Source: an uncultured Ruficoccus sp.
Lineage (GTDB): Bacteria; Verrucomicrobiota; Verrucomicrobiia; Opitutales; Cerasicoccaceae
DNA length: 64,000 bases
Direction: 5' to 3'
Assembly: GCA_965140785.1 (NCBI GenBank)
Contig: OZ223481.1
Location: 384,001 to 448,000, forward strand
Shown: positions 1,960-5,343 of the stretch, one piece after another
How the letters are laid out: each line of letters begins with the position of its first letter
Position numbering within the stretch: position 1 is the stretch's first letter
Program-made: the position numbers and the translations under genes
The notes under the pieces: generated by a model
What the model was told of the DNA's origin: nothing
The model's database searches: none
The model's input: only the letters and a program-made list of their open reading frames with translations

Positions 1960-4900
1960 TCAGGCCCCGTGCGCGATAGCACCGGCGTAGGTGTAGCCGC
2001 CGCCGAAGGCGACCAGGCCGTACTTGGCGCCGGGGCTGATGCGGTGCAGGTTTTCCTCCAGGCACAGCGGGATGGAGCTGGAGGAGGTGTTGCCGGTCAG
2101 CTTGACGTTGCGCCAGACGCGCTCGGGGTCGATGTGGAGCTGGCGGGCCACCGCGTCGAGGATGCGGTCGTTGGCCTGGTGGGGGATGATGCCCTCCAGG
2201 TCGGTCGGCGGCGTGTCGCACTGCTCGCAGACGGTTTCGAGCATCTGGCGCATCTTGCGCACGGCCTTCTGGAAGACCCGCCCGCCGCTCATGGAGATCT
2301 TGTTCGTCGGATCTGGCAGGGGGACGGAAAGGAATTCGCCGGTCTCGCCCTCGGCGGCCAGGGCAGGCTGGTGCAGCCAGAATTTCGGTTTGTCGGCTAC
2401 GCCGGAGCCTTCGAGGAGGGTGGCGGTGGCGGCGTCGCCGAAGAGGATAGCCGTGTCGTAGTCCTCCATGTTGAGCAGCGAGCTCATCACTTCGGAGGTG
2501 ACCATGAGTACGCGAGCATCCGGGCGGGTGTGGAGGAAGTCATAGGCCAGCGAAAGGCCGTAAAGGTAGCCGGAGCAGGCCGCGCTGATGTCGAAGGCCG
2601 GGCATTCGTAGTCGCCGCCGACGGCGTGCAGCAGGCGGCAGGCGAGCGAGGGCGTCGCGATGTCCGGCGTCGTGGTCGAGCAGATGACCAGGTCGATGTT
2701 TTCGATCGACATGTCGAGGTTGGTCAACAGCCGGGTGGCCGCATCGACGGCCAGGGTGAGCACGTTCTCGCCTTTGGAGACCCAGGGGCGGGAGTGGATA
2801 CCGCACTGGCGGATGAGTTTCTCCTCCGTGCTGTCCGGGAAAAGTTTCAGCAGCTCGGCGTTGGAAACCTGGCGTGAGCCGCGGGAGGAGGCGATCGCGC
2901 TCAGGCCTACGTAACGGGTCTGCGGGCTGACAATGGCGGGCGCTTCCACCGTGGCGGCTTCGGCGGGCCTGGCCGGTTCGGAAAGCAGGTACGGGGTTTC
3001 CTTGACGCGGCGGGCGGAGTCGGCGGCGGCTGCGATCTCGTTGGCCACGCGCAGGCGCAGGATGGGCGCGCCCACGCGGACGGTGCCCCCGGCCTCGACG
3101 AGGATTTCCTCCACCGTGCCGCTCTGCGGGGAGAGCAGGTCGGCGGCGGCCTTGTCGGACTCGAAGACACCCAGCACGTCGTCCACCTTGACCTCCTTGC
3201 CTGGTTCGGTCAGCCATTCGGCGATGGTGACGGAGTCGTCGGAGGCCGAGACGCCGAGGGCGTTGATGGTAAAGAGTTGGTCGTCATCCCCGGCTTCGCG
3301 CTTCCAGCCGATCTCGAGCTTGAGCAGGTCGGCGGCGGCAGTGACGATGCTGCGCATCGAGGGCAGCGTCTCCAGGTGGCTGGGGAAGTGGAAGGGCACG
3401 TAGGTATCGGCCCGGGCCACGCGGCGCACGGCGACGGGGCGCTGGGCGGCCTCGACCACGGCGGCGCAGATTTCCGCGCCGGGGCCGTAGGAGAGGGAGT
3501 CCTCGTGGACGACCACGAGCTTACCGGTTTTTTCCGCCCAGGCGGTGACAAGGGGCTTGTCCCACGGGCTCAGGCTGCGCAGGTCGATGACCGCGCTGGA
3601 GACCCCAAGCGTGTCGAGGGCCTCGGCGGCCTCCTCGCACAGCGAGACCGTGTTACCCCAGCCGACCAGGGTCAGGTCCGTGCCCTCGCGGGCGAGGCGG
3701 GCGCGTCCGGCGGGAACCCAGTGCCGATCGATGTCGGCGGAGGTGGACAGGCCGCGGTTGTTGAGGAGGTTTTTCGGGTAAAAGAAGACCGAGGGGCGGC
3801 GCGAGGCGAAGGCTGCCCGGAGCATCCCGGCGGCATCCCCGGCGTTCGAGGGCATGAAGACATCCACGCCGGGGCTGTGGGCGGCGATGGCCTCCATGGT
3901 CTGCGTGTGGGTGGGCCCGGTGCCGGGCCGGTAGCCACCGCAGGAGACCATGAGGATGACAGGGGCTTCCCACTCCCCGGCACTGCGCCAGTAGGTGATG
4001 GCCAGCTCGCTGTGGAACTGGTTGTAAACCATGGGGAAAAAGTCGGCGAACTGGACGAAGGCCACGGGCTGGCCGCCGGCCATGGCGCGGCCGATGGCGG
4101 TCCCGATGATGGTGGACTCGGCCAGGGGCGCGTTGCGCACGCGTCCGGGGTGCGCGGTGGAGAGACCCTTGGTCACGCCGAAGGCGTCGCCCTTGGGGTC
4201 CTCGATGTCCTCGCCGTACAGGCTGACGGCGGGGTTGGTCTCGAGCTGCTCCTTGAGCACGGCGACGATGGACTCGCGCATGGAGAGGTCGGCGGCACCG
4301 TCCTTGCCGGTGTATTCCTTGTTGGAAAGGTAGTGCGAGGACAGGGGGCGCTTGACCTCGGGGGCGAGGGCGGGCGCGGGGACCTTGCGGGAGTCCTCGG
4401 CGGCGGCTTCGGCCTGCTCGCGGCACGCCTGGTCGATCTGTTTGACCTCATCCTCTGAGAGACCCAGCTCGACGAGCTTCTGGGCCAGCAGGGCGATGGG
4501 ATCGGCTTCCTTGACGATCTGGTCGATCTGTTCAGGTGTGCGGTAAAGGCTCTGGTCGTCGGCGTTGGAGTGGCTGCCGAGGCGCTCGGCTTCGACCATG
4601 ACGAGGGCCGGGCCGCGGTCTTCACGCATTTTCGCGCAGACCTTTTCGAAGCCTGCGCGCATGGCCAGGGCGTCGCGACCGCTGAGGCGGGTCATTTCGA
4701 GGCCGAAAAGCTCATCGTGCCGCTTGCCGCCGGGCAGGGAGTAGAAGGTCTTGCCCTCGGTCACGGTGGAGAGGGCGAAGTGGTTGTCCTGCACGACGAA
4801 GAGGACGGGCAGGTGGTCGCGCACGGCCTCGGCCACGGCCTCGAAAAAGTCCCCCTGCTGGGTGCCGCCGTCACCGATGGAGCAGTAAACGATGGGCTTC

Positions 4901-5343
4901 TCCGGCTGGTCCTTGACCTGGGCGGCCACACCGACGGAGGGCAGCAGGTTGTTGGAGACGGAGGTGGGCATGGTCATCACATGCAGCTCGCGGTCGGAGT
5001 GCATGGTGTTGAGCTGGCGGCCCTTGGAGCTGGAACGGGCGTTGCCGAAGAGCGCGTCGAAGATCGTCTCGGGTTTGATACCGCGGGCCAGTTGCAGGGC
5101 GCGGTCGCGGTAGTGGCAGTGGAGCCAATCCTGGGGCCCGAGGAACTCGGCCAGCGCGGCCAGAGCCTCGTGCCCGGCGCATTCGACGTGGAAGAACGCT
5201 TCGCCGCGCTTGATCAGGCGGGCTTCGAGGCGCTCGATTTCGCGCGACAGCCGCATCCAGCGGTACAGCGCACGGGCAGCGTCAAGGACGGAGGCGTCGG
5301 AAGCCTGCTCGGGTTTCGAAGAGGTGTGCAGTGGTTGCTTCAA
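1960..5343 (-). CDS. Fusion: TPP-dependent 2-oxoacid dehydrogenase E1alpha + E1beta + lipoyl domain + beta-ketoacyl-ACP synthase III (FabH)
   Basis: TPP motif GDGGTQQG..VVQDN; E1beta motifs GEDI..NAPLAES..QFADF..GPTHTQ; lipoyl motif FESDKAA; FabH triad AACSG, PHQAN, GNTSSSS and C-terminal AFGGG. TTG start. Confidence 0.92.
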   Translation of the reverse strand: MKQPLHTSSKPEQASDASVLDAARALYRWMRLSREIERLEARLIKRGEAFFHVECAGHEALAALAEFLGPQDWLHCHYRDRALQLARGIKPETIFDALFGNARSSSKGRQLNTMHSDRELHVMTMPTSVSNNLLPSVGVAAQVKDQPEKPIVYCSIGDGGTQQGDFFEAVAEAVRDHLPVLFVVQDNHFALSTVTEGKTFYSLPGGKRHDELFGLEMTRLSGRDALAMRAGFEKVCAKMREDRGPALVMVEAERLGSHSNADDQSLYRTPEQIDQIVKEADPIALLAQKLVELGLSEDEVKQIDQACREQAEAAAEDSRKVPAPALAPEVKRPLSSHYLSNKEYTGKDGAADLSMRESIVAVLKEQLETNPAVSLYGEDIEDPKGDAFGVTKGLSTAHPGRVRNAPLAESTIIGTAIGRAMAGGQPVAFVQFADFFPMVYNQFHSELAITYWRSAGEWEAPVILMVSCGGYRPGTGPTHTQTMEAIAAHSPGVDVFMPSNAGDAAGMLRAAFASRRPSVFFYPKNLLNNRGLSTSADIDRHWVPAGRARLAREGTDLTLVGWGNTVSLCEEAAEALDTLGVSSAVIDLRSLSPWDKPLVTAWAEKTGKLVVVHEDSLSYGPGAEICAAVVEAAQRPVAVRRVARADTYVPFHFPSHLETLPSMRSIVTAAADLLKLEIGWKREAGDDDQLFTINALGVSASDDSVTIAEWLTEPGKEVKVDDVLGVFESDKAAADLLSPQSGTVEEILVEAGGTVRVGAPILRLRVANEIAAAADSARRVKETPYLLSEPARPAEAATVEAPAIVSPQTRYVGLSAIASSRGSRQVSNAELLKLFPDSTEEKLIRQCGIHSRPWVSKGENVLTLAVDAATRLLTNLDMSIENIDLVICSTTTPDIATPSLACRLLHAVGGDYECPAFDISAACSGYLYGLSLAYDFLHTRPDARVLMVTSEVMSSLLNMEDYDTAILFGDAATATLLEGSGVADKPKFWLHQPALAAEGETGEFLSVPLPDPTNKISMSGGRVFQKAVRKMRQMLETVCEQCDTPPTDLEGIIPHQANDRILDAVARQLHIDPERVWRNVKLTGNTSSSSIPLCLEENLHRISPGAKYGLVAFGGGYTYAGAIAHGA

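Follow-up and report, generated by a model that had tools for sequence, protein, structure and literature searches.

Can a bacterium start a fatty acid from a 2-oxoacid on one polypeptide, with no acyl-coenzyme A (CoA) in between? This question is raised by a gene at positions 1960-5343 of a 64,000-nucleotide stretch of DNA (the window) from an uncultured Ruficoccus sp. of the Verrucomicrobiota (GenBank assembly GCA_965140785.1, contig OZ223481.1, positions 384,001 to 448,000 of the forward strand). Initiation sets which fatty acids a cell can make, and branched starters reach FabH, which is beta-ketoacyl-ACP (acyl carrier protein) synthase III (KAS III), as acyl-CoA delivered by a three-enzyme complex made of a decarboxylase (E1), a lipoyl-bearing acyltransferase (E2) and a dihydrolipoyl dehydrogenase (E3). 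Here, both halves of an E1, a lipoyl domain and a FabH domain are joined in a single chain. The reading toward which we lean, if only slightly, is that this fusion forms a module which by itself supplies starters to type II fatty-acid synthesis (FAS II), converting a 2-oxoacid into a 3-ketoacyl-ACP independently of CoA.

The gene is a single intact open reading frame (ORF) on the reverse strand, with a TTG start, 1127 codons and no internal stop; the positions of its parts are collected in Table 1. All Pfam domains listed there score above their curated cut-offs and follow one another as E1 alpha, E1 beta, lipoyl domain, flexible linker (12 Ala and 5 Pro among 44 residues) and FabH. A codon-level check retrieves the lipoyl motif E728-S-D-K731-A as well as the catalytic triad C923/H1055/N1085. 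Neither the 2-oxoacid_dh E2 core (PF00198) nor the E3_binding domain (PF02817) was found in the fusion protein at E<=0.01; since the catalytic core and the peripheral-subunit-binding domain are both absent, the protein is not an E2. A biotinyl domain in place of the lipoyl domain was also considered, and rejected on the strength of the E-S-D-K-A motif together with weak matches to GCV_H and to the lipoyl region of E2. A preliminary description, made from the letters of the stretch, had reported an uninterrupted frame of this length with a thiamine pyrophosphate (TPP) motif, an E1 beta, an ESDKA motif, an Ala/Pro linker and a Cys-His-Asn triad, with FabH at the usual place of the E2 core and neither an E2 core nor an E3 gene alongside. 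Pfam and the codon check recover every one of these elements, the domain order and the lack of PF00198 agree with the place given to FabH, and a scan of 19 neighbouring ORFs (window 1-25.9 kb) found no E2, E3, ACP or fab gene.

The architecture is accompanied by strict conservation. In an alignment of 40 homologues that are 45-90% identical to the query, the residues K731 and E728 of the lipoyl domain, C923, H1055, N1085 and R1060 of the FabH domain, and G157, G159, N187, E409, H479 and H258 of the E1 part are invariant (40/40). The predicted fold of residues 681-1127 comprises confident lipoyl and FabH domains (mean predicted local distance difference test score, pLDDT, of 86.4; 86-95 in the lipoyl domain) that are connected by a disordered linker (pLDDT <50).

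The layout is also widespread. A domain-architecture search, suggested as a check in the preliminary description together with the caution that the fusion might be an assembly artefact, recovered the same six domains in 120/120 best matches (46-100% identity, 1094-1166 aa), which were taken from 1724 protein matches among 8000 candidates scored and whose sources include Ruficoccus (90%), Puniceicoccales, Opitutales, Pirellulales, Planctomycetaceae, Spirochaetaceae and KSB3. When a single genome was scanned for each species, at least 706 pattern matches were obtained, at least 667 of them encoding a relative; the best 80 yielded 79 loci, and 78 of these 79 contain an ORF of the fusion cluster (median 1108 aa, some ending at contig ends). 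These best loci come from 25 spirochaetes, 13 Kiritimatiellales/Pontiella, 12 Pirellulaceae, 10 Rhizobium-type bacteria, 5 Verrucomicrobiota, 4 other Planctomycetota, 2 Sumerlaeota, 2 Devosia, a single Rhodocyclaceae, Xenococcus and Armatimonadota each, and others. An assembly artefact or a chance ORF is thus ruled out, because the homologues of identical layout suffice by themselves; in addition, one 6950-nt contig of the public run X1, which may be the source sample, spans positions 1796-5800 with zero differences. The fusion enzyme is real and widespread, and it is apparently unstudied: in open-access papers and preprints (subscription journals lay outside the search), we found no publication on it.

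The most informative part of the protein is its FabH domain. It has the fold of 1ebl_A (template modelling score of 0.92, target-normalised, root-mean-square deviation of 2.2 A and 32% identity in Foldseek), and residues 810-1123 pass the cut-off of the PRK09352 FabH subfamily (264 vs 249) while missing that of TIGR00747 (230.8 vs 292.1); five other fusions score 191-235 bits. In a maximum-likelihood tree, 40 fusion FabH domains are split from eight stand-alone FabHs with 100/100 support and by a long branch. For a residue-by-residue comparison, E. coli FabH numbering was transferred through a HMMER alignment to 1HN9 and the residues were then counted, with a reference set of seven housekeeping FabHs that score above the TIGR00747 cut-off and originate from six carrier genomes, namely the window's own and five further ones (one more FabH-like protein, L112, below the cut-off, was omitted). 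As stated in PMC4606726, in the structures of E. coli FabH with CoA the residues Trp32 and Arg151 flank the adenine ring of the latter, which is stacked between them; going by their titles, two solved structures (2aj9 and 2ahb) represent M. tuberculosis mutants at the corresponding residues. At the Trp32 position, the fusions display Asp (24), Glu (9), Lys (4), Gly (2) or Ser (1) and in 0/40 cases Trp, compared with Trp in 7/7 housekeeping FabHs. The Arg151 position is occupied by Phe (21), Tyr (10), Pro (6) and otherwise Leu, Glu or Ala, with Arg or Lys in 0/40, compared with six Arg and one Lys in the reference set. At Phe87, the distribution is Thr (34), Ser (3), Val (2) and Ile (1) versus Phe (5), Leu (1) and Met (1). 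The protein of the window has K842, Y962 and T897 at the positions of Trp32, Arg151 and Phe87, respectively. The Arg249 position (R1060 in the fusion, codon 2164-2166), which we take to be the ACP-docking residue, remains Arg in 40/40 fusions and in 7/7 housekeeping FabHs. As judged from its sequence, this is a FabH domain that is devoid of the CoA-adenine sandwich yet endowed with the condensing and ACP-docking residues.

Which substrate would enter the module depends on the E1 part, which is of the heterotetramer (alpha/beta) type by its Pfam domains, its TPP motif and its Glu and His residues. In the solved E1 beta chains 1um9_B, 1qs0_B and 2j9f_B, the counterpart of H479 is the conserved His of the active site; the TPP-motif residues, E409 and H479 presumably act there as they do in E1 enzymes. 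The E1 alpha loop reads H-S-N-A-D-D (H-S-x-A-D-D in the family, with H258), compared with H-S-M-S-D-P in the pyruvate dehydrogenase (PDH) E1 alpha of the same genome, and the scores of the fusion for the NCBIfam PDH E1 equivalogs are far under the cut-offs (176 vs 411 and 187 vs 454). The closest solved relative is the branched-chain-type E1 from T. thermophilus (beta 164.7 bits, alpha 121 bits), with PDH-type chains close behind. A branched-chain 2-oxoacid is the most likely substrate, if only weakly indicated, with pyruvate remaining a candidate.

The content of E2 cores was surveyed in the same six carrier genomes. The window's own genome (4.36 Mb, 50 contigs, 90.85% complete) contains exactly two, one in a PDH operon (pdhA, pdhB, E2 of 447 bits) located ~280 kb from the fusion on the same contig and one in the 2-oxoglutarate dehydrogenase (OGDH) operon sucA-sucB-lpd on a different contig (SucB 555 bits). 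The only other alpha/beta E1 of this genome is the PDH E1, and no separate branched-chain dehydrogenase complex was found in it at the above completeness. It also possesses lpd, two LplA/LipB-family genes, a housekeeping fabH beside plsX (456 bits) and three more KAS III-like genes in other clusters. Two E2 cores are present in Rhizobium lusitanum (SucB 648 and PDH E2 586 bits, both over the cut-off) and in another Verrucomicrobiota carrier (PDH-like 431 and SucB 539 bits), and one complete core plus a fragmentary match in a Pirellulaceae carrier. Consequently, 4/6 carriers, the window's genome included, have E2s of the PDH and OGDH types only and no candidate for a third, branched-chain E2. 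The Pontiellaceae isolate has two cores (PDH-long-like 524 bits and an ambiguous one of 263 bits) and the Alkalispirochaeta carrier four, two of them ambiguous.

Fatty-acid records can be set beside this census. According to Table 3 of PMC7656272, six R. tropici-group strains contain C15:0 iso 3-OH at 1.1-14.0%, with 14.0% in R. tropici CIAT 899, whereas the acid went undetected in R. leguminosarum USDA 2370. Among the best 80 loci, the Rhizobium-type ones belong to R. rhizogenes (2), R. tropici, R. lusitanum, R. leucaenae and five 'sp.' or unnamed records, all of them from Rhizobium isolates or from a Rhizobiales isolate, and plasmids of R. leguminosarum and R. johnstonii bear an annotated, separate operon for the branched-chain 2-oxoacid dehydrogenase (BCKDH). 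In this rhizobial comparison, where the strains used for genomes and for fatty acids are partly different, the fusion lineage without a BCKDH E2 makes iso acids, and the lineage with a BCKDH operon does not show C15:0 iso 3-OH. According to PMC7356697, i-C12:0, i-C14:0 and i-C18:0 are major fatty acids of the genus Pontiella; this genus and its order together supply 13 of the best 80 loci.

The reaction sequence that we propose would begin on the fused E1 alpha-beta, presumably a homodimer by homology with alpha2beta2 E1 enzymes, which would decarboxylate a 2-oxoacid on TPP; 2-oxoisovalerate and 4-methyl- or 3-methyl-2-oxopentanoate would be the likeliest substrates, pyruvate also being possible. 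The acyl group would be reductively loaded onto lipoyl-Lys731 in the lipoyl domain of the same protein. Borne on the Ala/Pro linker, the lipoyl arm would then enter the pantetheine tunnel of FabH, which stands in the place of the E2 core, and acylate Cys923. Malonyl-ACP would dock at the Arg1060 patch, and His1055 and Asn1085 would drive the decarboxylative Claisen condensation to a 3-ketoacyl-ACP, which ordinary FAS II enzymes would elongate. The dihydrolipoyl arm would be re-oxidised in trans by a dihydrolipoyl dehydrogenase, which in the window's genome could be the lpd product of the OGDH operon. No acyl-CoA intermediate would be formed, and the housekeeping FabH would stay on acetyl-CoA priming, the fusion contributing starters of a second class. 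The preliminary description had already imagined such a CoA-independent, channelled primer route, and we consider this interpretation the most likely one. A hand-over without CoA fits the anatomy of the protein, the loss of the CoA-adenine residues, the absence of a further E2 in 4/6 genomes and the iso acids made by some carrier lineages; what stands less firmly in that proposal is the lipoyl-to-Cys passage of the acyl group and the substrate class.

Several points weigh against a CoA-independent starter. The acyl transfer from lipoyl-Lys731 to Cys923 is a step that we infer, and the loss of Trp32 and Arg151 disfavours a CoA donor but does not alone point to a lipoyl donor. Compared with phosphopantetheine, the lipoyl-lysine arm is short, which puts its reach to Cys923 in question, and the lack of an E3-binding domain leaves no evident site for re-oxidation of the arm, short of which the enzyme would perform a single turnover. 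Concerning the substrate, the solved E1 beta chains come out in a near-tie (T. thermophilus branched-chain 164.7, Pyrobaculum 'PDH' 160, P. putida BCKDH 155.9 and Geobacillus PDH 151 bits). Two of the six carriers (Pontiellaceae and Alkalispirochaeta) hold extra E2 cores of ambiguous type (253-351 bits), so that an E2 acting in trans is possible in these two. All six retain a housekeeping FabH, which makes the fusion an accessory enzyme. Most cultured Pirellulaceae are known for straight-chain acids. Finally, the predominant acids of the Ruficoccus family, C14:0 and C18:1w9c according to PMC10288369, are unbranched.

The spread of the gene and its company bear on its role. Among 301 sampled Verrucomicrobiota genomes, 28 have a match across the lipoyl and FabH domains, and 26 of the 27 matches that fully span both sit in frames >=1100 aa; within the window's order, only its own genus (3/3) carries the fusion, whose distribution is therefore patchy. 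One copy of the same genus (G302:C51:2434-3723, locus L124) is only 48% identical to the window's, as against 90% for that of another genome, which hints that the gene was acquired on separate occasions or replaced through gene transfer. None of 460 matching plasmid records covers >=80% of the fusion protein, and no split form was seen in the 301 Verrucomicrobiota genomes. Shorter lipoyl-FabH proteins, at most candidates for true split genes, are encoded on long contigs (e.g., P0132, P0153 and P0207), P0132 and P0140 starting inside the C-terminus of E1 beta. No neighbour is conserved across phyla among the 79 loci. Within lineages, 10/10 Rhizobium loci have, immediately upstream and in the same orientation, a gene of the fatty-acid hydroxylase family (PF04116, ~331 aa; e.g., L045:8749-9744 (+)) that may tie the product of the fusion to hydroxylated lipids. 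In four spirochaete loci, a short-chain dehydrogenase/ketoreductase (SDR) gene follows directly downstream (e.g., L083:6314-7093 (+)), a possible partner acting on a 3-keto product. Six Pirellulaceae loci have, 3' of the fusion and on the same strand, a gene whose product contains two BMC (microcompartment shell) domains (e.g., L024:13304-13930 (+)).

The same chemistry might serve another destination, the 3-ketoacyl-ACP or a released beta-keto acid starting a specialised lipid. Candidates would be 3-hydroxy-iso acyl chains for lipid A or for ornithine lipids, an N-acyl amino acid or a molecule used in signalling. We regard this other destination as unlikely, although it would be in line with a patchy accessory gene (28/301 Verrucomicrobiota, a single genus in the window's order) in carriers that all keep their housekeeping FabH, with the hydroxylase and SDR neighbours in rhizobia and spirochaetes, with the iso acid of the R. 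tropici group being mainly a 3-hydroxy acid and with the predominance of unbranched acids in the Ruficoccus family. It is at odds with the lack of a neighbour common to the different phyla, with the position of the window gene, alone among unrelated transport genes, and with the iso acids of Pontiella and Kiritimatiella, which are major bulk fatty acids.

Two further explanations involve other roles for the parts of the fusion. That the FabH-like domain replaces E2 as an acyltransferase, moving the acyl group from lipoyl through Cys923 to CoA or holo-ACP for use by another ketosynthase, seems to us distinctly improbable: the invariance of the Cys-His-Asn triad, fit for malonyl decarboxylation, and of the ACP-docking Arg (40/40) speaks against it, the PRK09352 FabH cut-off is passed, and the absence of CoA-nucleotide residues disfavours CoA as acceptor. 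Nevertheless, KAS III-like enzymes acting as acyltransferases are known, the domain occupies the exact place of the E2 catalytic core and its TIGR00747 score is below the equivalog cut-off. More doubtful still is a conventional chemistry on a fused scaffold, in which a separate E2 makes acyl-CoA, the fused FabH consumes it and the fusion merely ensures co-expression or proximity. Such a scheme has for it that textbooks describe this very route, in which FabH acts after a branched-chain oxoacid dehydrogenase, and the presence of at least one E2 core in every carrier, with extra ambiguous cores in two; it has to cope with a protein that offers no peripheral-subunit-binding domain for docking an E2 core, with a FabH domain lacking the CoA-adenine residues in 40/40 cases, with four carriers out of six restricted to PDH- and OGDH-type E2s and with R. 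leguminosarum, which has a BCKDH operon yet no detected C15:0 iso 3-OH.

At the level of the gene itself, an AGGA motif is found 7 nt 5' of the TTG start, and the G+C content at third codon positions (GC3) is 0.89, similar to the adjoining genes. The fusion gene stands alone, with gaps of 256 nt upstream and ~480 nt downstream. A palindrome in the AT-richer region upstream (Table 1) is a possible operator, and a simple scan of the 256-nt region detected no sigma-70-like promoter. Past the stop codon, a perfect inverted repeat is possibly a terminator or a dispersed repeat; the latter is suggested by matches to this stretch on several unrelated contigs of run X1. An Rfam scan of window 1-10000 at the gathering cut-off, made with a riboswitch downstream of the fusion in mind, gave no match. 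The neighbouring genes encode an Asp-Al_Ex permease, an ABC ATPase, a CobW-type GTPase, a solute-binding protein and two-component regulators. Further away, the region 27000-64000 of the window has a lower GC3 (~0.5-0.65 vs ~0.8 in 1-26 kb) and includes a non-flagellar type III secretion gene set recognised with Pfam; eight of the large ORFs scanned between 27035 and 44381 gave no Pfam match.

Table 1. Features of the fusion gene, its flanks and the secretion gene set (window coordinates unless residues of the fusion protein are given)
Feature	Position	Strand	Evidence or remark
Whole gene, E1alpha-E1beta-lipoyl-linker-FabH	1960..5343	-	1127 aa; stop codon at 1960-1962
E1_dh	residues 28-324	-	Pfam 151 bits (cut-off 22)
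Transket_pyr	residues 353-528	-	Pfam 88 bits (cut-off 27)
Transketolase_C	residues 546-656	-	Pfam 98 bits (cut-off 25.9)
Biotin_lipoyl	residues 705-764	-	Pfam 50 bits
ACP_syn_III	residues 917-980	-	Pfam 69 bits
ACP_syn_III_C	residues 1040-1123	-	Pfam 80 bits
E1 alpha part, TPP-binding, residues 28-324	4372..5262	-	G157-D158-G159...N187 at 4783-4875
E1 beta part, residues 353-656	3376..4287	-	Transket_pyr + Transketolase_C; invariant E409, H479
Lipoyl domain, ~residues 690-765	3049..3276	-	K731 codon 3151-3153 in E-S-D-K-A
Ala/Pro-rich flexible linker, residues 766-809	2917..3048	-	composition; pLDDT <50; no PF02817
FabH/KAS III domain, residues 810-1127	1963..2916	-	C923 2575-2577, H1055 2179-2181, N1085 2089-2091
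Upstream intergenic region, 256 nt	5344..5599	-	AGGA + 20-nt palindrome at 5486-5505
Perfect 28-nt inverted repeat, 12-nt loop	1753..1820		140 nt past the stop codon of the fusion
FlhB/YscU	44802-45854	-	Pfam
FliN-C	47590-48636	-	Pfam
EscN-type ATPase	50360-51700	-	Pfam
FHIPEP	53836-55932	-	Pfam
TyeA domain	57130-58305	-	Pfam
Secretin	58397-60364	+	Pfam
YscD/FHA	62312-63643	-	Pfam

How far the proposed route departs from current knowledge may be stated with the same care. The broadest form of the proposal is that S-acyl-dihydrolipoyl-lysine directly donates the primer to a ketosynthase, in a complete CoA-independent route on one polypeptide that would be an undescribed way for bacteria to begin fatty acids, one that gene transfer would have carried into at least eight phylum-level lineages; we see the chances for and against it as evenly balanced. 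If true, the lipoyl thioester would be a new donor chemistry for ketosynthases and could account for iso-fatty acids where a branched-chain dehydrogenase complex is absent, as in the R. tropici group. Besides, the fusion would offer a compact one-gene part for producing branched-chain fatty acids or fuels in hosts such as E. coli, and database names such as 'beta-ketoacyl-ACP synthase 3', 'transketolase' and '2-oxoisovalerate dehydrogenase E1' would have to be corrected.

Among known systems, the association of the BCKDH complex with FabH in the iso/anteiso route of Bacillus, Staphylococcus and Listeria shares with the fusion a TPP-dependent E1 of the heterotetramer type, a lipoyl-lysine carrier and a FabH with its triad; the best solved E1 relatives of the fusion are 1um9 A/B, 1qs0 and 1dtw, and the starters are probably shared as well. 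Unlike that route, the fusion is single-chained, has no E2 core, E3-binding domain, adjacent E3 or CoA-adenine residues, and presumably skips acyl-CoA. With E. coli FabH (1EBL, 1HN9), the fused domain has in common the fold, the triad, the tunnel residues M207/G209/F213, N247 and the R249 position, whereas it differs by the replacement of W32 by D/E/K, of R151 by F/Y/P and of F87 by T, and by its covalent tether to a lipoyl domain. Fused E1 alpha/beta chains also exist on their own, for instance on Streptomyces plasmids, under the annotation 'alpha-ketoacid dehydrogenase subunit alpha/beta'. They have the same order and 37-39% identity to the rhizobial fusion over residues 6-649; unlike the latter, they end after E1 beta or adjoin a nonribosomal peptide synthetase (NRPS), without a lipoyl-FabH tail. 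On the Streptomyces xanthii plasmid NZ_CP061282.1 (L134), such a gene (8932-10944) lies directly upstream of an NRPS gene and near genes for pabB, chorismate mutase, prephenate dehydrogenase and ornithine cyclodeaminase. Relatives of this E1 may thus feed other assembly lines.

Two other precedents may be compared. In quinocarcin-type biosynthesis, a carrier protein is charged with a C2 unit by systems composed of E1-like, lipoyl-E2-like and ACP components. As proposed for the fusion, a lipoyl arm hands a TPP-derived acyl unit to an acceptor other than CoA; the difference is that these systems use an E2-type acyltransferase and an ACP as acceptor, where the fusion would presumably use the Cys of a ketosynthase. 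The other precedent concerns the start of fatty-acid synthesis. According to PMC10869286, the malonyl-ACP decarboxylase MadA/MadB and FabB of Pseudomonas putida provide non-canonical starts giving acetyl-ACP; unlike the fusion, they make it from malonyl-ACP and involve no 2-oxoacid, TPP or lipoate, but, like the route proposed here, they circumvent the usual pairing of acyl-CoA with FabH.

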